This document shows, in pieces, positions 16,893 through 28,716 of a stretch of 54,684 nt of DNA (position 1 is its first letter; every line of letters begins with the position of its first letter). A program made the translations under genes and the position numbers. The notes beneath the pieces were generated by a model. It was given only the letters and a program-made list of their open reading frames with translations, did not search any database and was not told where the DNA came from. Location of the stretch: the UHGV virus genome UHGV-0199215, one strand, 5' to 3'. Source of the DNA: a virus.

Positions 16893-16908
16893 TAAAGCAC
16901 GTTATGAT
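16880..16908 (+). promoter_or_regulatory. sigma70-like promoter overlapped by operator repeats
   Basis: TTGCAC, 17 nt spacer, TATGAT. Confidence 0.5.
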
Positions 16909-16939
16909 TTACCCGTGGTTAAATAAGAAGGGTGTGATA

Positions 16940-17653
16940 ATGAAAAAGAACCTTTTAGACGAATTGATAGATTTAAAAGGCGGGGTACAAAATGCTGTTG
17001 AATACCTTAATCGTCGAGGTGTTAAGGTAACCATTGGTCGTTACAACCAATGGTTAAGCGGTAGGTTTCATCCTAAATATGAAACGATCAGTATTATTCT
17101 TGAAGAGATTACTGACTTCACACTGTCACCTTCGCCAGTACAACATTCTGACGAAAACATTGTTCTTAAACACACAATACCGGTTACCGAACTGCGTCAG
17201 AAATTACCATACAGGCGTTTTGCTAATAACTACTGGCAACGTGTCAGATACGTTGATTCACAGATCCTGGAAGCTGTTCACGGTCACGACGTGTGGGCAC
17301 GGTTTGAGGCGATGTGCGGTAATTTTGAATGTGCAAGATACGTGTTACGCAGGAATTTAAACGAACACACCGTTACTGACAGTTGGATTCAGAATGGTTT
17401 GCGCCGGGGCTGGATCCCAGAATGTGTAAACGTGATGGTCGATTTGCTTGAAAAATACGAAGGCACCGGAACACCGTTTAACGTGATGGTTTGTGAAGCA
17501 CCTGTAGCACGAGTGGAAGCACCTGTAGTCGATGTCAGCGATTTGAAGGAGAAAATCAGACTGTATGCGTTATCACACAACCCGCATTGCGATGTAGATA
17601 ATATGCCGGACGATGTTGTTTTGATGATGTATAAAGATATGATGGGTCAATAA
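16940..17653 (+). CDS. putative DNA-binding regulator
   Basis: ATG 16940 after AAGGGTG; N-terminal HTH-like segment; directly downstream of the operator array. Confidence 0.5.
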   Translation: MKKNLLDELIDLKGGVQNAVEYLNRRGVKVTIGRYNQWLSGRFHPKYETISIILEEITDFTLSPSPVQHSDENIVLKHTIPVTELRQKLPYRRFANNYWQRVRYVDSQILEAVHGHDVWARFEAMCGNFECARYVLRRNLNEHTVTDSWIQNGLRRGWIPECVNVMVDLLEKYEGTGTPFNVMVCEAPVARVEAPVVDVSDLKEKIRLYALSHNPHCDVDNMPDDVVLMMYKDMMGQ

Positions 17654-17658
17654 AGATA

Positions 17659-17683
17659 GCGGGGTAGTTAGCCCCGCTTTTTT
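17659..17683 (+). terminator. rho-independent terminator
   Basis: gcggggtagttagccccgc hairpin followed by TTTTTT. Confidence 0.7.
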
Positions 17684-18648: not shown

Positions 18649-19266
18649 TCACAGATCTCCCATCGCTTTAACCAGTGCGTCGTAGTGTTTGTCAAACGCG
18701 GTTAACTGGACGTTCGTTAGTTTGTATTTGGCTTTAAACAATTCACGCTCAACAAGCGCGTATAACTCCTGATTACTGGCGTCTGACAGGTGAGCAAGCA
18801 TGAGTTGTTTTTCAGCCAGGTATGTTACAGCAAACTTCGGATCGTGTCGGACAATTGAAGAGGTGTTATCCAGCAGATCACACAGTTTTATAGTTTTCAC
18901 CACAGGTTCAGCCCGTGATAAATGGTCGATATCCCGTGCTTTACGCTTAACACGGTTGCCGTGGTGTGGACGACTCACATCAGTAAGCTGATCAACATAA
19001 CGTGCCACAGTCTCACCGAACTGCGAACACACATCACCCACGGTCACGGGCGTATCTTCAACGACGTCATGCAGCCAGGCAGCGGTAACCATATCCGGCG
19101 TACCACCATAGCGTTTAACCAGTTCAGCAACGTTCCGGCAGTGGTTCACATATGGGTCGTTGGTGTACTTACGAAGTTGATCACCGTGTGCTGCTGTTGC
19201 GAATTGTTCAGGTGTCATCATAGTTTTTGATAGTGGTGAAAAACCAAGTTGAAGTTTAGTGCTCAT
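18649..19266 (-). CDS. HD-domain (p)ppGpp hydrolase-like protein (small alarmone hydrolase)
   Basis: AAHGDQLRKYTNDPYVNHCRNVA and AAWLHDVVEDT match the SpoT/Rel hydrolase HD motifs; ATG 19266 after AAGGGT. Confidence 0.7.
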   Translation of the reverse strand: MSTKLQLGFSPLSKTMMTPEQFATAAHGDQLRKYTNDPYVNHCRNVAELVKRYGGTPDMVTAAWLHDVVEDTPVTVGDVCSQFGETVARYVDQLTDVSRPHHGNRVKRKARDIDHLSRAEPVVKTIKLCDLLDNTSSIVRHDPKFAVTYLAEKQLMLAHLSDASNQELYALVERELFKAKYKLTNVQLTAFDKHYDALVKAMGDL

Positions 19267-19268
19267 AT

Positions 19269-19545
19269 TCAATACCCTTTTAATTTTCTACACTCAGGAC
19301 AGCGCCATCTACCTTTTTGATAAACTCGCGCATGACCACGTTTACATTTATTGGTTACCAGTGATATACCGAGACGTGACGCTTTAATGTGCACCGCTTC
19401 AACGTCCCGGCGAAGGTAATACGCTATTTCGTCCGCACTGATCTTTCCTGCATTAATTTTTAATAACGCCAGATCTCGTGCGGACCATTTCAAACCGTTA
19501 CGAGGGAACCTGTTAGTCGAATACTCATACACGAACACACCTTTT
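19269..19545 (-). CDS. putative HTH / zinc-ribbon protein
   Basis: C-terminal CPECRK ribbon; start placed at a GTG after AAAGGTG because the first ATG overlaps the upstream gene. Confidence 0.35.
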
Positions 19546-20013
19546 ACGAAGCTGTATGGCGCGATTATTGGCCTGCTGGAGAACCATCTTCCATCCCACA
19601 ACATCGTGCATATCAGATGAGCACGACTGATTGGAGAATTTGACCAACATTGTTTCAGCCACACCAGCTAAACTATCAAGTTCGCTGGCCCGTACTTCAG
19701 CCAGGAAAGAGTCGGTGGCTGGAGTTTCAGTGAGCTCACTAACCCAGTCGGGTCCAAATTCTTCTGCGCACATCTTATCGAACTCACGCTCAGATTCTTT
19801 CAGCTTTGCATTCTCCGCCGCCAGAGCCGCGCACTTGGCCTCAAGGTTATCAATCGTGATTCCAGCAGAACGACACTCCCGCAACGCCGTTTCTAGTTTT
19901 GATTCAAGTTCAGCAAATTTACGCGCCAGATATTCAGCGTTTGTTTCGTTAACTTTCAGGTCGCCCGGAATACATTTACCACGAAGAAAACCTTCCATTT
20001 CATATACAGTCAT
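19525..20013 (-). CDS. coiled-coil protein
   Basis: 162 aa rich in heptad-like Ala/Glu/Lys/Leu stretches. Confidence 0.45.
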   Translation of the reverse strand: MTVYEMEGFLRGKCIPGDLKVNETNAEYLARKFAELESKLETALRECRSAGITIDNLEAKCAALAAENAKLKESEREFDKMCAEEFGPDWVSELTETPATDSFLAEVRASELDSLAGVAETMLVKFSNQSCSSDMHDVVGWKMVLQQANNRAIQLRKRCVRV

Positions 20014-20238
20014 TTAACGCACCTCGACATCAATTATTAAATCTTCTGGTACTGTCACCACAACGCGGTCGTTTTCGCAAAATGGTGACAGCGGTTCCTC
20101 TTCCGGTTGTAAGCGAATGGTAAGTGTTGCCCCGTGGTAATTGATATAGCGTACCCAATACCAATCGTTAAACACTTCAATCTTGTCACCCGGTTTAATA
20201 TCACGGGCAACGGTTGGATTTATCAGTCGGATAGTCAT
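20014..20238 (-). CDS. hypothetical protein
   Basis: 74-aa ORF. Confidence 0.45.
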   Translation of the reverse strand: MTIRLINPTVARDIKPGDKIEVFNDWYWVRYINYHGATLTIRLQPEEEPLSPFCENDRVVVTVPEDLIIDVEVR

Positions 20239-20895: not shown

Positions 20896-21084
20896 CTAGT
20901 CTCCTTTAGTGCGCAGGTGGTTTTTCCAGCGGTTTTGCGCCGCGCTGGGCTTTTTGCAAAAACCACAATCCATCATCCCGTAATATTTTATTAACCCCAT
21001 TCGTCGGTTGCTGAGTCTCACCCACTGCCAGACGCCGGGACCGTTTCTACGAACTAACAGAATCTTTGCTTTACGGTTTTTCAT
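20896..21084 (-). CDS. hypothetical protein
   Basis: 62-aa ORF with CGFC pair. Confidence 0.45.
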   Translation of the reverse strand: MKNRKAKILLVRRNGPGVWQWVRLSNRRMGLIKYYGMMDCGFCKKPSAAQNRWKNHLRTKGD

Positions 21085-21848
21085 AACCGGTGCTCCTTCA
21101 GTGCTTTTAACGCTTCAAACTGTTCAGCAGTAAGTTCAACCAGGACTTTACCACCTTCCTGGCGGGTTGCAGACCATTCACCACGGATTGCTTCCACTGC
21201 AGACCGTACCAGTTTAGCGGGTGGACGACGCGTGACTACAGGTTCTTTATCACCTGCTTTAAACTGGCGAATGGCTGCTGATGCGCTGATTTCACCATTC
21301 TGGATCCGGCGTTTAAGTTCCAGCGGCATATCAAGAATATTCAGTTGTTCGTAAACGTGCTGAACGGTTTTACCGACCTGTGTAGCGATCTGCTCAACAC
21401 TCATGCCATATGAACGGAAACGACCGTAAATAACAGCACGTTCAACAGGGGACCACGGTTTACCTTCATTACCTTTTAACAGTGTCAGGGTCTGTTGTAG
21501 TTCGTCACCGGACGATTCAACAACATCTACTGTCAGAATCGGCGTCCCGGCTTCAATAGCTGCCAATACGCCACGTAAACGATGCTCACCATCCTGGACA
21601 TACGGAACACCGTCAACAACCTGTACCACGATGGGTGGAACGAAATCGCCGTTGGTATAAGCCTGACGAAAGTTTTCAATGTGTGCCAGTGCTGCTTCAG
21701 TTTCCCAGTAGTTGTCGGTAAACACACCGCGTGGGTTATGTCCTGGACGAATCTTGATAATACGCGGATCAATGCGATATGCGTTACCACGTTTTACGTT
21801 GGTTTTATCGGTATCAGACAGCTTGCGAAGGGAGTTAATGTTAGCCAT
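21081..21848 (-). CDS. ParB-like nuclease domain protein
   Basis: 255 aa; ParB/sulfiredoxin-type N-terminal region plus HTH (SVEQIATQVGKTVQHVYEQL). Confidence 0.7.
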   Translation of the reverse strand: MANINSLRKLSDTDKTNVKRGNAYRIDPRIIKIRPGHNPRGVFTDNYWETEAALAHIENFRQAYTNGDFVPPIVVQVVDGVPYVQDGEHRLRGVLAAIEAGTPILTVDVVESSGDELQQTLTLLKGNEGKPWSPVERAVIYGRFRSYGMSVEQIATQVGKTVQHVYEQLNILDMPLELKRRIQNGEISASAAIRQFKAGDKEPVVTRRPPAKLVRSAVEAIRGEWSATRQEGGKVLVELTAEQFEALKALKEHRL

Positions 21849-21882: not shown

Positions 21883-21924
21883 ATTATCGGGGAGGTTTGG
21901 TAATCTGTCAAGAATTATTTTAAG
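21883..21924 (-). promoter_or_regulatory. conserved phage promoter (minus strand)
   Basis: Reverse complement gives AAAATAATTCTTGACA, 17 nt spacer, -10 GATAAT. Confidence 0.6.
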
Positions 21925-22315
21925 GATATGGAACCCACACAGTTAAACCAGCTTTCAACATGCGACGATGCATATCAGCAGTACCACGCCCACCGGGGAA
22001 CACAACACCGTATGTAGGACGTGGCTCACCCTCTAACATCGCCTGATTACGTTGATGACCTGCAACAGCGTTATAAGCCCCGTGCTTACCCTGTTTTACA
22101 ACCGCACCAGGTACAGTCAGATCGTCCCACGCTGCCGGGCAACTACGCACAGGAATACCGTGTAATTGCGCCCATTGCTTACACAGGTTATCAACACCTG
22201 ACGCACCACCTTCAATTAGTTCGGTAACCGGAAATTGTTTGTGAAGTAGTCCTAACGCGGAAAACACTGCTGTTCTGTCGTTAAAGTCACGACCACCTGT
22301 GACGACAATTATCAT
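21920..22315 (-). CDS. DUF2493-like (SLOG / Rossmann-fold) protein
   Basis: VVTGGRDF...GGASGVD...VFPGGRGT pattern. Confidence 0.55.
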   Translation of the reverse strand: MIIVVTGGRDFNDRTAVFSALGLLHKQFPVTELIEGGASGVDNLCKQWAQLHGIPVRSCPAAWDDLTVPGAVVKQGKHGAYNAVAGHQRNQAMLEGEPRPTYGVVFPGGRGTADMHRRMLKAGLTVWVPYP

Positions 22316-22992
22316 TGTTTATTAGCCTCAAATACAGCGCGAGCAAAACCACGCGGGGTTAATGAACGTAACTGTTTAGTTGTTTCAGACTTACCACCCA
22401 GATATTTCCAGCCCCAGAAGAAACCAATATTAATCGGTCCAGGACGTTTTTCAGGCATTCTGAAACCGTTACCGAACCACAGACATGTTTTCTTCGTGTA
22501 TCCGTCAAACATCGGCATTTTAGGGTGAAAAGGTTTATCATCTGTTGTCATATAACCGCCATATTCCCACGGATGAAAATAAGCGTCAGGTGTCCCCATC
22601 ATTTCAGGACGTGATAAAGCACCGACAGGGTTTTCGACCATCCAGGGTACATCATAACGTTCTCCAAGTTCCCGGATTAGTTTTGCGTTTGCCAGTGCAT
22701 ACTGTAGTTCAGCGTCATCCCGGTCATGTTGTGAACCGCTTTGAGCAAACAGGGTGCAATCCGGGAAACCAAAAATAATCGACGGTAAAGGTGTTCCCAG
22801 TATTTCCTGCTTAATTGCAAATTGTGGGTCAATCCACTGATTAACGTAATGAAGATTGGGGTGATCAGCTTTAATAAAATATTCCCCGTGATTAGCGGAA
22901 TCAGCATTAAAACAATAAACCTGATAACCATGTATCGCCCACGGTAAACCCATAATCCCGGAACCGTCGAACAATGACCAGACAATTTTCAT
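22312..22992 (-). CDS. DNA (cytosine-5)-methyltransferase-like protein
   Basis: Motif I LFDGSG, motif IV-like FPDCTLFAQSG, motif VI ENPVG, C-terminal RSLTPRGFARA. Confidence 0.55.
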   Translation of the reverse strand: MKIVWSLFDGSGIMGLPWAIHGYQVYCFNADSANHGEYFIKADHPNLHYVNQWIDPQFAIKQEILGTPLPSIIFGFPDCTLFAQSGSQHDRDDAELQYALANAKLIRELGERYDVPWMVENPVGALSRPEMMGTPDAYFHPWEYGGYMTTDDKPFHPKMPMFDGYTKKTCLWFGNGFRMPEKRPGPINIGFFWGWKYLGGKSETTKQLRSLTPRGFARAVFEANKQ

Positions 22993-23484: not shown

Positions 23485-25839
23485 CTAACTATTACTCGCA
23501 GGTGGAAAAGGCACTACATTAGCTGTTGACTGAAAAGGGAGAAGACGAATACCCCTGAAACCGTTTAGTCGAACGTTATTTATATTAACAACGTCTTTTT
23601 TCACTTTACCACGAAGGGTGGATTTAAACGCCCGACTAAATGCAGTTTTAGTCATTGCTGGACCACCTTCCTGTGTTTTCCAGAGACGATAACGACCATA
23701 GAGTTCTTCAGTGTGCACCTCACCATCAGATACCAATTCGCAACAATCTCTGATAAAACTTCTAAGTGGTGATTGTTGATCCATAATTTCCTGACGTTCT
23801 TCCAGACTTGCTTTTGGTTCAGTAAACCGTCCGTTTGCACGTAACCGTTGTAAACCTTCAATCGCCCAGTTACAGATCCCCGGTAGTTCTTTCATCAGTC
23901 GTGCTTCCAGAGTGGTATCTTCACGACCCAGGAACGAAATGTTGAACGGCAGGATCAGCAAACGGTTAGCCATTGCACCGGAATCATCAGCAAATGCAGG
24001 TATGTTGTTAGCAGCCAGTGTCATACGTCCAGGTAAACGACCGTTCCATGCACCTTTATACTTACGATTAACCGGAATCGCATCACAACCTGTAATAGAT
24101 TTGAAACGGTCCAGAATTCGGTTGCGGTCAGGCCCGGACACACTGTGAGCATCACCAATAAACAGCACAGATTTATCCAGCACAGTTTCAAGTACCGCAT
24201 CACTGGCTAAACCCTCCAGTGTGATCCCTGCATACGCTTCATCACCTACCAGTGCCTGAATGATGCGACCAATCGTACCTTTACCGGAACGTGGCGCACC
24301 AATCAACAACATCGCTTTCTGATAGTCGTACGAGTTGACAAGCATGTAACCCAACCATTCCTGCAACAGTGCAATACGTTCCTGATCACCTTCCAGAGTT
24401 GTATTAAGAAACTGTTCAAATGCTGGCGCACGGGCAAACGGATCGTAGCTATACGGTAAAATACTGGTCGTAAAGAAATCAGGGTTATGTGCATCACATT
24501 TACCCGTGTGTACATCCAGTATCCCGTTCTGACAAACAATATAGTGTGATACATCAACGCCGGGCCATGTTCCAAGCTCACGATCAGCGCGTGTGAATAA
24601 ATACGACAAAACCTTGTACGTACCGTTAATTACGTCAGCTTTTGGTTCGCTGGCGAGCATTGCCATAGATATCTGATGTTTCAGTTCATCTTCACTCACA
24701 CGTTCCCACACGCGACCGTTGAACCGGTACGGCTGTTGCTGGACAAAAATCAATGTGTTGTTTGGATAATAGTTATTAACGAACGTGGATGCGTTAACCG
24801 TATGGTTTGAACCATATGCACCTTCACCGGGTTTCACACTCATGTACGCAGGTGTTCCACCATTAGGAACGACGGTAGGCGCTGGTGTGACTGCTTTCAT
24901 CAGTTCTGGTGTCATTGTCGGTTGACTACGATACACAGTATCACAACGTTCCACAGCGCCCAAAATCGTGTTTTCACGGTAATCCTGACGATCTGTCCAT
25001 TTACCACGAACCAGCCCAGAACGGTTAAACAAACGTTCAATACGTTCGCAATCTTTCCCTGTCCAGAACGCAAGGTGTGAGCACAGGGCAGCATCAGCGG
25101 CAGATGCATTGTAGTCTTTTCCCTGGTCGCTGGGGTATGACACAGACAGGCGTTCAACGTTTGCATTCCACAGATCTGCAAATGACGCTTTATTACCAAA
25201 TACTGAAGCAGCACTGGACGAATTTAACGCCATTTTAATCAGTTCATCATCGTCTGCCGGACCTGACCAGTCATCACAGGGTGCTGTTGTCCAGCGTGCG
25301 GAACGGTCTGAACGGATACGACCATACCGGGCAATAGAATCATGAATGCCCTGGGTATAATCAATATCAACATCGCCATTACCCGTGAGCGTCATCGCGA
25401 CGAAACGATCACGCCAGTACATTTCCAGCCCGGTTTTCTGGTCGTTCAGACTGTTAAAACCTTCCGGTATGCTGGTATAAGCACAGATGATATGCAAACC
25501 TGTTCCTGACTGGCTGACTTCAGTGTAAGCATTTGGAAAACGGTTTACGAATTCATGCGCCAGTGGTGACCATGTGGCTGTTGCCTGATCTACCAGACAG
25601 TTATCGACATCAATAAAGAAATAAGGGTCATTTTCTGTGAATACAAAACCAACACCAGACATGCCGTACATTTGCGCCATACCTAACGCGGTGTGATAGT
25701 CAGACCAGTCGTTAGGGTTAGTGGTACTGGCTTTATAACCGTGTACCGGGCTGTATGGTACTTTCGTTGGTTTTGGACGATCGGCAACTGTCTCAAGTCG
25801 CCACATGACCCACTGTTTACGGTTCAGTAACCCTTTCAT
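23485..25839 (-). CDS. DNA primase / helicase (prim-pol plus P-loop NTPase)
   Basis: 784 aa; Walker A GAPRSGKGT in C-terminal half; primase-sized N-terminal domain. Confidence 0.8.
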   Translation of the reverse strand: MKGLLNRKQWVMWRLETVADRPKPTKVPYSPVHGYKASTTNPNDWSDYHTALGMAQMYGMSGVGFVFTENDPYFFIDVDNCLVDQATATWSPLAHEFVNRFPNAYTEVSQSGTGLHIICAYTSIPEGFNSLNDQKTGLEMYWRDRFVAMTLTGNGDVDIDYTQGIHDSIARYGRIRSDRSARWTTAPCDDWSGPADDDELIKMALNSSSAASVFGNKASFADLWNANVERLSVSYPSDQGKDYNASAADAALCSHLAFWTGKDCERIERLFNRSGLVRGKWTDRQDYRENTILGAVERCDTVYRSQPTMTPELMKAVTPAPTVVPNGGTPAYMSVKPGEGAYGSNHTVNASTFVNNYYPNNTLIFVQQQPYRFNGRVWERVSEDELKHQISMAMLASEPKADVINGTYKVLSYLFTRADRELGTWPGVDVSHYIVCQNGILDVHTGKCDAHNPDFFTTSILPYSYDPFARAPAFEQFLNTTLEGDQERIALLQEWLGYMLVNSYDYQKAMLLIGAPRSGKGTIGRIIQALVGDEAYAGITLEGLASDAVLETVLDKSVLFIGDAHSVSGPDRNRILDRFKSITGCDAIPVNRKYKGAWNGRLPGRMTLAANNIPAFADDSGAMANRLLILPFNISFLGREDTTLEARLMKELPGICNWAIEGLQRLRANGRFTEPKASLEERQEIMDQQSPLRSFIRDCCELVSDGEVHTEELYGRYRLWKTQEGGPAMTKTAFSRAFKSTLRGKVKKDVVNINNVRLNGFRGIRLLPFQSTANVVPFPPASNS

Positions 25840-26016: not shown

Positions 26017-26504
26017 TGTTTAATCCATTTTTCAAATTGTGAAGGATGAGTGATGAAACGAAATTCACCACCTGCGTTTTCAACAATCGCACCGAAAGTG
26101 GCCTGTGCTTGTGCACGTCTGTCACTCGGGGTCATGTGCCAGTCAGGGCGTTTCATTTCGGCAGCAATAAAGACACCCACTTTCGAACCGATCATATCCG
26201 GTGTAACGATTTTGGTTTTAATGCCGATGTAGTCGCTTGACTTCATAACAGCGTTGATTTTCGCACTGGTGTTACCAAGACCATAACGAACCATCATTCC
26301 TTTTTCGTTTTTCAGAGCACCTGAGTTATTACGCCAGATACGTTGCCCTGCGCGTGCCGCAATCAGTTCACACTCTTTACTGGTGGCGCTTTCACTTACA
26401 CCGTCTTCGTGTGGTGTTCCATCAGGCTGATAAAGCGCGTATAACTCGTACAACGCCATCTGACTAATACCGTGACGAATCGCCCATTGTTCAAGCGTTG
26501 TCAT
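26013..26504 (-). CDS. VRR-NUC-type PD-(D/E)xK nuclease
   Basis: PDMIG...AEMKR arrangement matches the PD...ExK catalytic core. Confidence 0.55.
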   Translation of the reverse strand: MTTLEQWAIRHGISQMALYELYALYQPDGTPHEDGVSESATSKECELIAARAGQRIWRNNSGALKNEKGMMVRYGLGNTSAKINAVMKSSDYIGIKTKIVTPDMIGSKVGVFIAAEMKRPDWHMTPSDRRAQAQATFGAIVENAGGEFRFITHPSQFEKWIKQ

Positions 26505-27007
26505 AATGTTTTAGTCCCACTAGTAAGATATTTAATCTGGTGTAAACAGTCGTCTAACGCATTGTGGTAAGTACCGTCACGGGTAAATTCTTTCGGGTTA
26601 ATACCCAGCAAATCAACAGCGGTACGAACATCACGGACGTTCCAGAACTTCCACGGGCAACGAACACCAATCGCATTAAACCATGCTTCCAGAATAGTGA
26701 TATCGAATGTGGAACCATTGCCCCACGGTTTAGCATCGTGCCAGATGAATTTGGCAAAATCTTTAGCAACCTGAACAGGATCGGCAGTACCACCAAAAGC
26801 ATCTTTTTGTGCTTGTTCTGACTGCTGCGACCACCACTTCATAGTGTCAGGGTCTGTGTGACCGTAAGCGAGCGCATTAAAACCCATTGATGCGTAAAAC
26901 GTTTCACCAATGTTACCCTGACGATCAAAGTAAACAGCGCCAATTGACAGCACTGCACAACCTGGTTTAGTACCACACGTCTCAATGTCAACCATCAAAT
27001 CACGCAT
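26501..27007 (-). CDS. 3'-5' exonuclease (DEDD family)
   Basis: VDIETCG motif I and YHNALDD motif III. Confidence 0.7.
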   Translation of the reverse strand: MRDLMVDIETCGTKPGCAVLSIGAVYFDRQGNIGETFYASMGFNALAYGHTDPDTMKWWSQQSEQAQKDAFGGTADPVQVAKDFAKFIWHDAKPWGNGSTFDITILEAWFNAIGVRCPWKFWNVRDVRTAVDLLGINPKEFTRDGTYHNALDDCLHQIKYLTSGTKTL

Positions 27008-27048: not shown

Positions 27049-28716
27049 TCAGATTAATGAACTTGCAACCCTTGCGGCGAGTTCATTAGCTTCACGAGTA
27101 CGTAACCCCTGAGCGCTAAGTACATCAACACCAAACACCCTGTAAAACATCTTGTAAGCGTCATCAACGGGTATACCTTTATCACGCTGAATACCCGCCC
27201 ATGTGGTGATCATACTGCGTAATTTACGCTGTGCATCGTTCATTGCCTGAATGTTTTTCATTGCACTGTAAGCTGCAATAGGGGGTGCACCAGCGTTTAA
27301 CATTTGTTCTTTTACTGCAACAGGGTCACGGTCGATTATCACCACTGCCCGGCGTAATTCTTCCAATTCTTCAGGTGTCAGTTCACGTAAATTACCTTCT
27401 ACACGATCCGGGCCTGAGCGTTCGGCTTTTTCAGGAATATGACCACAATACGGGCAGCACGGAAGACCAGACGGATAAGGCTTCAGACACGGTGGAATAC
27501 CATTATCAGGATCACCCTTGTTTGTACATGTTGTATTACTGTTCCCACTGCTGTTAGATGAACGACGATCACGGTCATCTAAAGACCAGTTGTAGTGCTG
27601 ATCGGGAAGTGGAAAACCACGGGCCAGAAATCGACGAACATTACCGACTTTATCAATAATCAGTGCTTTTTTACCGGGTTTGAAACGCAATGGTCGACCC
27701 ATCTGTTGTACAAACAAAGAGTAAGATTCTGTTGGACGGTCCATTACAGCGCATTCCATCGCCGGGCAATCGTACCCTTCACCGAATAAATCGTTGTTAC
27801 ATAGCACGAGTGTTTTACGTCGTTCAAAACGTTCCAGAATATCCGCTCGTTCCTGATTGCTGTTTCGTGAGCTGATCGCCTCTGCAGGAATGCCAGCATC
27901 GCGAAATTCTTTTGCGAGTGCTTCAGCAGAATCTACGTCACACGTAAACACAACAGTGAGTAAACCGTCTGCGTACGTTTTCCACGTACTGACGGTATCA
28001 CCAACGATGTTTGAATCTTCCATCGCTTTTTTTAACGCAGAGGGTTTGTAATCACCCGTAGTATGGGAAATCATTTCTGCAGTTAATTCCAGGTCTGTTT
28101 CAGCCATGATCAGGCGATAATCAGCCAGGTGTTGTTGGCTGATTAACTCACGCATTGATGGACCGATGATCATCTGATCTGCGTAACCTGACGCATGACG
28201 ACCCAAGCCTTTACCGTCAGCACGGATCGGTGTAGCTGTAACACCCAGACCTTTAGCGTTAGGGAATTTTTCCCGGCAGTCTCCCCACTGTGTGCCACGT
28301 ACCAGGTGATGCGCTTCATCGCTGAATACAAGAGACACGTCGTTGTACCATCGTTCGTACTGTTTTGTTCTTAACGTTTGTGAACTGGTAATAACGATGT
28401 CAGCGCCGGGGGAATAGGTACTGTAACCAAGCGTTTTCATCTGCTGATTAGTTGCAAACTTAACAGTATCTTTTTGCGCTATAAATCTGTGTGGTAATCC
28501 CTGGCGAGCAACAGCCATTGCGATTTGACTAACCAGTTCTTTACGGTGTGCCTGGATGACTTTTACACCGTCGGATTTTACCAGTTCTGCAAGCGCTCGG
28601 GTCTTTCCTGCACCCGTGGGAAGTACAAGAATCACGTCATCAGCACCGTTCGACCATGCCTGGCGCACGTTGTTAACGGCATCTTGTTGATAGTGACGAA
28701 GTGGTTGTTGACTCAC
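27049..28716 (-). CDS. SF2 DNA helicase (DEAH box) with C-terminal Cys cluster
   Basis: Walker A VLPTGAGKT, FSDEAHH box, CPYCG ribbon. Confidence 0.85.
   Translation of the reverse strand: MSQQPLRHYQQDAVNNVRQAWSNGADDVILVLPTGAGKTRALAELVKSDGVKVIQAHRKELVSQIAMAVARQGLPHRFIAQKDTVKFATNQQMKTLGYSTYSPGADIVITSSQTLRTKQYERWYNDVSLVFSDEAHHLVRGTQWGDCREKFPNAKGLGVTATPIRADGKGLGRHASGYADQMIIGPSMRELISQQHLADYRLIMAETDLELTAEMISHTTGDYKPSALKKAMEDSNIVGDTVSTWKTYADGLLTVVFTCDVDSAEALAKEFRDAGIPAEAISSRNSNQERADILERFERRKTLVLCNNDLFGEGYDCPAMECAVMDRPTESYSLFVQQMGRPLRFKPGKKALIIDKVGNVRRFLARGFPLPDQHYNWSLDDRDRRSSNSSGNSNTTCTNKGDPDNGIPPCLKPYPSGLPCCPYCGHIPEKAERSGPDRVEGNLRELTPEELEELRRAVVIIDRDPVAVKEQMLNAGAPPIAAYSAMKNIQAMNDAQRKLRSMITTWAGIQRDKGIPVDDAYKMFYRVFGVDVLSAQGLRTREANELAARVASSLI

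Follow-up and report, generated by a model that had tools for sequence, protein, structure and literature searches.

Small alarmone hydrolases (SAHs) encoded by phages, their neutralisation of toxic small alarmone synthetases (toxSASs) and the idea that phages employ them to evade alarmone-based defence have been in the literature since 2020 (PMC7229694). The enzyme of Salmonella phage SSU5, which belongs to the PaSpo subfamily, and that of phage PVP-SE1, classified as PbcSpo (Jimmy et al. 2020, PMC7229694), each neutralise five of five toxSASs in E. coli, namely CapRel, PhRel, PhRel2, FaRel2, and FaRel (PMC7229694). PaSpo(SSU5) strips the tRNA 3'-pyrophosphate installed by FaRel2, for which leaky expression is enough (PMC11245113), and the same enzyme has been employed to make CapRel-SJ46 expressible (PMC9712102). 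The SAHs MESH1 and ATfaRel likewise restore aminoacylation of FaRel2-pyrophosphorylated tRNA (Kurata et al.), and MESH1, besides reversing tRNA 3'-pyrophosphorylation, also hydrolyses ppGpp. Phage SAHs are now routinely mentioned in phage genome papers. Here we describe one such gene, located at positions 18649-19266 on the minus strand of the UHGV virus genome UHGV-0199215, whose full stretch of 54,684 nucleotides we refer to as the window. Its product aligns with the SSU5 enzyme, encoded by SSU5_099, at 50-52% identity over 145-158 amino acids (E 9e-46, 137 bits), and we lean, by a little over even odds, toward the view that it is an active, stand-alone SSU5 PaSpo-like SAH with a mainly counter-defence role.

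The gene and its domain family

The gene is a minus-strand open reading frame (ORF) of 205 codons plus a stop whose limits in the ORF listing are exactly 18649-19266. A longer version of 207 codons begins at a TTG (18649-19272, minus strand) and contains the ATG at 19266 in frame. Read on the plus strand, 18649-19266 contains many stops and no open frame, so the feature is a minus-strand gene. An earlier description made from the letters of the DNA (hereafter the sequence-only reading) had given the gene these same limits, which are exact for the ORF, but its opening 16 codons (19219-19266) are foreign to the hydrolase. That description had not stated the strand, the chimeric N terminus, or the earlier characterisation of phage SAHs of this clade.

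The window is a phage. The 4-kb surroundings of the gene share about 96% nucleotide identity with Escherichia phage KarinMuster_Bas82 (Bas82) and its relatives 536P12, AVIO78A, PJ16, PDP46, and BDX09P1, a sequence relationship that places the window among the Sashavirus/Nonanavirus-type coliphages. The features of the gene and its immediate upstream region are as follows, with residues numbered on the 205-amino-acid form.

19275-19281, minus strand: Shine-Dalgarno-like AAAAGGG, 8 nucleotides upstream of the ATG at 19266, a putative ribosome-binding site
19219-19266, minus strand: non-native N-terminal leader MSTKLQLGFSPLSKTM, comprising codons 1-15 of a DUF7446 gene and one Met codon
18649-19218, minus strand: coding sequence of the native SAH, 189 amino acids plus stop, starting at M17 of the 205-amino-acid ORF, as delimited by identity to Bas82_0088, the HD_4 match, and the AlphaFold2 model
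19150-19188, minus strand: motif 1, H27-G-D-Q-L-R32-K33-...-P38-Y39, aligned with H19...R24 K25...Y32 of MESH1, substrate-binding region
19141-19143, minus strand: H42, first metal ligand, invariant and aligned with H35 of MESH1
19051-19083, minus strand: motif 2, AAWLH66D67VVE70D71T, residues 62-72, the HDxxED signature, with its codons checked
18949-18987, minus strand: clade signature LTDVSRPHHGNRVKRK, residues 94-109, with D96, S98, G103, N104, R105, and R108 invariant
18865-18879, minus strand: D130-L-L-D-N134 (within KLCDLLDN), the last metal-ligand Asp and a conserved Asn, aligned with D122 and N126 of MESH1

The native protein consists of one HD_4 domain followed by two C-terminal helices. 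Pfam HD_4 (PF13328) is its top profile match, with an E-value of 5e-15 and a score of 56 bits over residues 21-142 of the 205-amino-acid form, where the gathering score is 27.2; the 189-amino-acid form gives 56.4 bits and an E-value of 3.9e-15. The generic Pfam HD family comes second and is weak, and these two are the only Pfam families matched at E ≤ 1 by what is a single-domain protein of 189-205 amino acids. The NCBIfam model TIGR00691 (spoT_relA) aligns only at model positions 4-122 of 687, which correspond to the N-terminal HD hydrolase part, and PHROG 990, labelled "metal-dependent phosphohydrolase," matches with an E-value of 2.6e-39. No synthetase, TGS, or ACT domain was found at E ≤ 1 in the Pfam and NCBIfam searches, and no Ppx/GppA-type (exopolyphosphatase) domain in the Pfam search.

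Fold and catalytic residues

Sequence matches in the PDB are all hydrolases belonging to the superfamily of RelA/SpoT homologs (RSHs), save for two marginal hits to HTRA1 (E 0.29-0.72). Lmo0812 scores best (4e-15), followed by human and fly MESH1 (1e-13 to 1e-11), the catalytic domains of Rel and SpoT (about 1e-10), and the SAHs of Leptospira, Corynebacterium, and Pseudomonas (6e-9 to 7e-5), with Aph1 giving a weak match (4e-3). An AlphaFold2 model built from a 121-sequence alignment is all-helical, with a predicted local distance difference test score (pLDDT) of 93.5 and a predicted template modelling score (pTM) of 0.88. The pLDDT exceeds 95 from residue 21 to the end and drops below 50 only at residues 1-8, the sole disordered part. 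When the model was compared with the PDB by Foldseek, the top 50 matches were without exception RSH hydrolase domains, from MESH1, bacterial SAHs, and Rel/SpoT, the best being MESH1 with template modelling (TM) scores of 0.80-0.82 and root-mean-square deviations of 2.0-2.4 over about 170 columns. Neither dNTP triphosphohydrolases nor HD-GYP proteins and phosphodiesterases nor 5'-nucleotidases occur among the Pfam, NCBIfam, or PDB sequence matches or the top 50 folds.

The active site is intact. Residues H42, H66-D67, E70-D71, D130, N134, R32-K33, and Y39 are present and invariant across 121 homologs. In MESH1 we take the Mn2+-binding and water-activating residues to be H35, H61-D62, D122, E65-D66, R24-K25, Y32, and N126, and H35, H61-D62, E65-D66, D122, N126, R24-K25, and Y32 pair in the alignment with H42, H66-D67, E70-D71, D130, N134, R32-K33, and Y39, respectively. 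The MESH1 sequence used in the multiple alignment and in the all-versus-all BLAST is consistent with the one in the PDB alignment. Motif 1 reads AAHGDQLRKYTNDPY (residues 25-39) and contains H27, R32, K33, P38, and Y39, while in motif 2 the HD pair supplies metal ligands and the ED pair is catalytic, with H66, D67, E70, and D71 all invariant. The protein is thus an RSH-superfamily hydrolase domain, a SAH, and what is known of the RSH family, taken with the intact active site, suggests that it removes 3'-pyrophosphates in a Mn2+-dependent manner.

These results bear out the sequence-only reading, which had recognised a SpoT-type HD hydrolase, here supported by an HD_4 match above the gathering score and a top 50 of folds composed of RSHs. 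Both Rel/SpoT hydrolase motifs that it named are present (residues 25-39 and 62-72), well outside what chance would give, the profile search returned HD_4 at 5e-15 and no other HD subfamily, the catalytic His and Asp residues hold throughout the 121-sequence alignment, and the lack of a synthetase domain is confirmed at E ≤ 1. Its description of the gene as a phage copy agrees with the roughly 96% nucleotide identity to Bas82.

The structural match to MESH1 also raises the idea that the enzyme acts on a non-alarmone substrate, be it NADPH, as for the metazoan protein, or another phosphorylated nucleotide, and serves as a metabolic-reprogramming gene. MESH1 heads the structural matches (TM 0.82) and has been solved with NADPH and PAPS bound (5vxa, 9chy), and an orphan bacterial SAH is reported to be metabolically promiscuous (PMC9765508). 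Identity to MESH1 is only 27-35%, however, as against 50% to the toxSAS-neutralising SSU5 enzyme, and since MESH1 itself reverses tRNA pyrophosphorylation and hydrolyses ppGpp, the fold does not discriminate between such substrates. We regard a non-alarmone function as quite improbable.

A chimeric start from a DUF7446 gene

In Bas82, an 81-amino-acid DUF7446 gene, Bas82_0087 (product beginning MSTKLQLGFSPLSKTIM..., Pfam E 3.2e-18), lies directly upstream of the SAH gene, and its stop codon overlaps the SAH ATG (TCATGA). A three-way DNA alignment shows that 194 nucleotides are missing from the window between two ATCATG microhomologies. The junction, at about 19216-19224, reads ...AAAACTATGATGACACCT... 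and sets codons 1-15 of DUF7446 and one Met codon in frame with M17 of the SAH, so that the conserved hydrolase starts at M17 (window position 19218). The deletion took nearly the whole DUF7446 gene and spared its ribosome-binding site and 15 initial codons. In each of the six related phage records the junction is matched only as two separate pieces, which makes the deletion private to this genome among deposited phages. Three E. coli chromosomes contain prophage DUF7446 genes whose 5' end matches the first 51 nucleotides of the ORF, and across complete E. coli genomes this leader is all that matches, with no ortholog of the hydrolase itself. A resemblance of residues 9-16 to the N terminus of the SSU5 enzyme had raised the idea that these residues are native; this was rejected, as the DNA alignment derives them from DUF7446.

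The AAAAGGG sequence is also found upstream of Bas82_0087 and is therefore inherited from the DUF7446 gene, and inspection of the sequence before M16/M17 revealed no comparable purine run. With the DUF7446 ribosome-binding site kept and none before M16/M17, the 205-amino-acid form is probably the one made, carrying a disordered tag.

A deletion of this kind could mark a decaying or non-functional passenger, in which the loss of 194 nucleotides may have damaged expression. The gene is dispensable in some relatives, and the 5' deletion and fusion occur in this genome alone. The fusion is nevertheless in frame and retains a good ribosome-binding site, and homologs in the alignment carry naturally variable N-terminal extensions. 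Moreover, the native 189-amino-acid protein is 100% identical to Bas82_0088 even though the genes differ at 15 nucleotides, with 15 of these changes synonymous and none non-synonymous, a pattern that indicates strong purifying selection. Together with the intact catalytic residues, these observations leave decay very improbable.

Distribution, variable presence, and public annotations

A search of a large protein database returned 1833 homologs at E ≤ 1e-5. Orthologs with at least 90% identity occur in eight phages (ten records); beyond these, the homologs are mostly single-domain proteins of 160-190 amino acids that are 45-60% identical to the query. Homologs are present in 287 phage records, including those of jumbo Pseudomonas and Erwinia phages and of Rhizobium and Caulobacter phages. 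Two homolog loci that we examined show the gene in a phage-like array of small ORFs, in one case close to a gene for a DnaB-type helicase, and a toxSAS neighbor was likewise lacking beside the distant homologs examined. The gene is not universal among close relatives: it is absent from phage Sasha, in which the ParB-like gene is followed by just three small genes and a terminator, and in the 4-kb nucleotide comparison phages Sergei and Solent show reduced coverage like that of Sasha. Presence in eight relatives and absence from Sasha is the usual pattern of anti-defence and host-takeover genes.

The clade extends to bacterial chromosomes. Among one-genome-per-species bacteria, about a dozen of the best 80 loci reach at least 41% identity, including Serratia, Pantoea, Biostraticola, and several metagenome-assembled genomes. 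The copy in Serratia rubidaea NCTC12971 (within the region 146549-154992 of LR590463.1) is a 51% identical orphan member of this otherwise mostly phage-borne clade. Its flanks lack phage similarity, no toxSAS lies nearby, and its neighbors are ordinary chromosomal genes (a LuxR-type response regulator, an EptA fragment, and a histidine phosphatase). Given such orphan chromosomal copies, the idea that the clade is exclusive to phages was rejected.

The orthologs carry three different labels in public records. That of PDP46 (PQ783785) is called a "RelA/SpoT family (p)ppGpp synthetase," which is wrong, as the synthetase domain is absent, and those of AVIO78A (MZ726797), PJ16 (OQ955832), and SP-062/SP069 (KC139632/KC139650) are called "polyphosphate hydrolase," a label left unsupported by the absence of a Ppx/GppA domain. 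The third label is "metal-dependent phosphohydrolase." The description and testing of phage SAHs date from 2020 and the exact protein is deposited in Bas82, so this is not a new kind of system. New here are the SSU5-PaSpo-like assignment, which corrects the public annotations, the variable presence of the gene within the phage group, and the private DUF7446::SAH fusion. For a gene that has been vaguely or wrongly labelled, the assignment supplies a function that is specific and testable.

Proposed function and its alternatives

The activity, substrates, timing, and benefit of the protein in infection are those that we infer for it as follows. The gene would be transcribed with the leftward replication and accessory operon, as an early or middle gene, and its translation would use the ribosome-binding site and start codon left by the deleted DUF7446 gene, which would add the disordered 16-residue N-terminal tag. 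The product would act as a Mn2+-dependent HD enzyme on purine nucleotides and RNA ends that are 3'-pyrophosphorylated, cutting off the 3'-pyrophosphate. In counter-defence, it would undo the pyrophosphorylation of the tRNA 3'-CCA by CapRel-, PhRel-, and FaRel2-type toxins and remove the (pp)pApp of FaRel-type toxins; host (p)ppGpp would probably be lowered too. Alarmone-based growth arrest or abortive infection would then no longer stop phage production. We favor counter-defence because toxSAS neutralisation and tRNA repair are the only functions for which we found data on the clade and because the gene behaves as a dispensable accessory. The two roles put forward in the sequence-only reading, blunting the stringent response and countering toxSASs, had already been discussed in the literature, the second being demonstrated for the 50% identical phage homolog (PMC7229694, PMC11245113).

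Several observations weigh against a counter-defence role. For this protein and its Sashavirus/Nonanavirus orthologs, the role would rest on data from homologs, and the sequence does not reveal substrate preference, a point on which we agree with the sequence-only reading. Neutralisation of toxSASs by SSU5 PaSpo was seen in co-expression and not in phage infection (PMC7229694). Bas82 encodes an identical enzyme and did not show noticeably greater robustness to the defence systems examined in the BASEL study, the accessible portion of which does not mention toxSASs, and the gene itself goes unmentioned in the available parts of the papers on AVIO78A and Bas82. The capsid protein of SECphi27 activates CapRel-SJ46, yet the structural proteins of the window have no sequence similarity to SECphi27 and give no specific sign of CapRel triggering; by tblastx, the window matches SECphi27 only at 22312-22992 (the strongest match, summed E 1e-44) and at the short segment 34954-35214. 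The orphan chromosomal members indicate that the clade is not dedicated to phage counter-defence, and either expression or activity could be altered by the 16-residue leader.

The main rival is that the selected role is hydrolysis of the host's own RelA/SpoT-made (p)ppGpp, countering the restriction that the stringent response places on phage transcription, replication, and translation, with activity against toxSASs a promiscuous side effect. This is the canonical activity of an HD_4/RSH domain, for which all catalytic residues are intact. Restriction by (p)ppGpp affects T7 and other coliphages, and the T7 portal protein suppresses RelA and SpoT (preprint 10.64898/2026.01.27.700999), a case that shows selection for lower alarmone levels. 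In addition, neither PADLOC nor the SECphi27 comparison disclosed a toxSAS link specific to this phage. The only direct functional data that we found for the clade, on SSU5 PaSpo, nonetheless deal with toxSAS neutralisation and tRNA repair and not (p)ppGpp; E. coli already has SpoT; and a general physiological need would fit poorly with dispensability in a relative as close as Sasha. The toxSAS and host (p)ppGpp roles are compatible, and the evidence does not separate them, but as an account of what the gene was selected for we consider host (p)ppGpp hydrolysis unlikely, if a serious contender.

The breadth of the SSU5 enzyme suggests a further alternative, namely that the main job is detoxification of (pp)pApp delivered or made by competitors, for example through the (p)ppApp-synthetase toxins of type VI secretion systems or the MuF polymorphic toxins of temperate phages, thereby sparing ATP and purine synthesis. 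SSU5 PaSpo neutralises the (pp)pApp synthetase FaRel (PMC7229694), an association with temperate phages is reported for MuF toxins that have adenosine 3'-pyrophosphokinase domains (PMC12226406), and the P. aeruginosa SAH, a fold match to the window protein (6yvc), degrades (p)ppApp according to Steinchen et al. The likeness to the dedicated (p)ppApp hydrolase Aph1 is, on the other hand, the weakest among the RSH-like matches, nothing ties this phage or its hosts to such toxins, and the role is a subset of the broad-specificity explanation. We deem it improbable as the main job.

Returning to counter-defence, a more specific form of it is that Sashavirus/Nonanavirus siphoviruses use the enzyme during infection as a broad-spectrum catalytic factor against CapRel and other toxSASs, one that would repair the 3' ends of pyrophosphorylated tRNA and destroy (pp)pApp. 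We advance this tentatively, as a proposal with rather less than an even chance. In a bolder variant, the RPxxGNR loop could adapt the enzyme to a further 3'-pyrophosphorylated immune signal or RNA. If the proposal is true, anti-toxSAS action, so far seen by plasmid co-expression of homologs alone, would extend to phage infection. The system is tractable, with an identical enzyme in the distributed BASEL phage Bas82 and natural relatives that do not have the gene, and whether a phage SAH protects against toxSAS (CapRel-type) immunity or against stringent-response restriction in infection is a question that can be approached with Bas82.

Genomic context

The SAH gene belongs to a variable accessory stretch with which a replication operon ends. 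Read leftward, the operon encodes an SNF2/DEAD helicase (27049-28716), an Rv2179c-like exonuclease (26501-27007), an NrS-1-like primase-polymerase/D5 helicase (23485-25839), a YAcAr/SLOG protein (21920-22315), a ParB-HTH protein (21081-21848), about seven small proteins, the SAH, and five more small proteins. Two candidate regulatory sites were found in this region.

21883-21911, minus strand: sigma-70-like promoter TTGACA-17-GATAAT (11/12), just upstream of the ParB-like gene, a match to consensus only
17658-17678, no strand assigned: bidirectional intrinsic-terminator-like hairpin with 8 pairs, 6 of them G-C, and T-runs on both strands, from a consensus scan

The hairpin, separated from the SAH gene on its downstream side by about 1 kb and five small genes, lies between the leftward operon and a convergent gene (16904-17653, plus strand), and Sasha has an annotated terminator at the corresponding position. 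It is likely a bidirectional terminator that closes the SAH operon. The Sasha homolog of the convergent gene contains an annotated tandem-repeat region. The site at 21883-21911 is at best a weak candidate for an internal promoter serving the stretch from the ParB-like gene through the SAH gene to the terminator; promoter-like sites are fewer in the region (10) than in shuffled sequence (15.7).

PADLOC returned no match for the SAH gene and nine of its neighbors, these being small genes of PHROG "unknown function." No toxSAS (RelA_SpoT-domain) gene lies next to the SAH gene, so that the locus does not have the form of a type IV antitoxin operon. No tRNA genes were found, which argues against counter-defence by tRNA substitution.

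The neighborhood is a mosaic exchange zone with temperate coliphages. Within the ORF at 19525-20013 (minus strand, PHROG 614, unknown function), positions 19682-20015 are 77-80% identical in nucleotide sequence to genes of the lambdoid phages HK629, HK106, HK75, and mEp506, and many Shiga toxin (Stx)-converting phages match the 4-kb query. This ORF overlaps by 140 nucleotides the one at 19269-19664 (minus strand), whose Bas82 counterpart has 112 amino acids and whose true start is probably an internal ATG near 19604. The 19269-19664 ORF has a weak match to PHROG 323, "D5-like transcriptional regulator" (E 5e-6), and its product has a C-terminal CxxC...CxxC-like motif (KCKRGH...WRCPECRK).

Farther upstream, the 131-amino-acid product of 21920-22315 (minus strand) matches Pfam YAcAr, a YspA/cpYpsA-related SLOG family, with an E-value of 1e-19, and its Bas82 counterpart is labelled "GTP-binding domain"; the protein, which shares an operon with the SAH, may bind nucleotides or ligands. 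The gene at 22312-22992 (minus strand, 226 amino acids) has no Pfam match at 1e-3 and occupies the position of Sasha gp74 ("C-5 cytosine-specific DNA methylase"). The 784-amino-acid product of 23485-25839 (minus strand) combines an NrS-1-polymerase helix bundle, D5_N, and DUF5906, the architecture of a primase-polymerase/helicase fusion.

Comparison with known alarmone hydrolases

Long RSHs such as SpoT and Rel share the HD_4 domain and the HDxxED chemistry with the window protein, and Rel and SpoT structures are among its fold matches, but it is too short for a long RSH and has no synthetase, TGS, or ACT domain. Aph1-type (p)ppApp hydrolases (7smg) have a distant HD fold and form the weakest RSH-like match (E 4e-3, query TM scores (TMq) of 0.42-0.51, 19-24% identity), from which we judge that the protein does not belong to that type. 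The solved bacterial SAHs, from P. aeruginosa (6yvc/6z3n), C. glutamicum (RelH, 7qoc/7qod), and Leptospira (7qoe) together with Lmo0812 (4yf1), have the same fold and motifs, with E-values of 4e-15 to 7e-5 and target TM scores (TMt) of 0.66-0.75. They differ in being only 22-26% identical by Foldseek and in being chromosomal housekeeping or immunity enzymes of other subfamilies.

All of the metal-binding and catalytic residues of MESH1 (human HDDC3, Drosophila Mesh1) align with those of the window protein. Identity is 27-28% by Foldseek and 35% over a 127-amino-acid BLAST segment; MESH1, in contrast, is metazoan, is a reported NADPH phosphatase, and does not have the clade-specific loop. The PbcSpo enzymes PVP-SE1 gp220 and C. 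marina ATfaRel are also stand-alone RSH hydrolases with the H...HD..ED...D...N pattern and are reported to neutralise every toxSAS tried, and that of PVP-SE1 is phage-encoded too. Similarity to gp220 is nevertheless limited to 36% identity over just 73 amino acids (E 6e-6), gp220 has no RPxxGNR insertion, and it scores under the HD_4 gathering cut-off, all of which places the window protein outside PbcSpo. ATfaRel belongs to a three-gene toxin-antitoxin operon, whereas the window gene is an orphan.

The closest comparison is with SSU5. In the all-versus-all BLAST, the window protein scored 137 bits against the SSU5 enzyme, 63.5 against MESH1, and 30.4 against PVP-SE1; in the PDB sequence search, SAHs scored 60 or less. 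Phage SSU5 carries one such gene, SSU5_099 (213 amino acids), and by all-versus-all BLAST and tblastn each genome, the window included, has a single RSH-like gene. Differences from SSU5 are found in the C-terminal 45 or so residues, which align poorly, in the foreign 16-residue leader, which only the window copy has, and in lifestyle: SSU5 is a temperate phage-plasmid, whereas the window is a siphovirus of the Sashavirus/Nonanavirus group, and in its relative AVIO78A lysogeny genes were not detected (AVIO78A phage paper). The best plasmid matches by tblastn are non-mobilizable plasmids of about 108 kb from Klebsiella, Enterobacter, E. coli, and Salmonella, one of which has SSU5-like gene content.

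We use the name SSU5-PaSpo-like on the basis of BLAST closeness, apart from the subfamily hidden Markov models and phylogeny of the original authors, and the P. aeruginosa SAH is only 22-25% identical. Likenesses to the SSU5 enzyme are nonetheless extensive. Both proteins are phage-encoded in Enterobacteria, neither has an adjacent toxSAS, and in both a helical C-terminal extension follows a single HD_4 domain. They share RPxxGNR and KLxDLLDNTSSIV, the SSU5 version of the clade signature being LTNIARPEDGNRIQRF, and the clade loop (L)T..(S/A)RPxxGNR, common to the window and SSU5-type proteins, is missing from MESH1 and PVP-SE1 gp220. Members of the clade were retrieved with three peptide patterns, one of which was DVS[RK]Px[HD]GNR. 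By sequence, then, the window protein is nearer to the classified PaSpo member of SSU5 than to the compared members of other SAH subfamilies.

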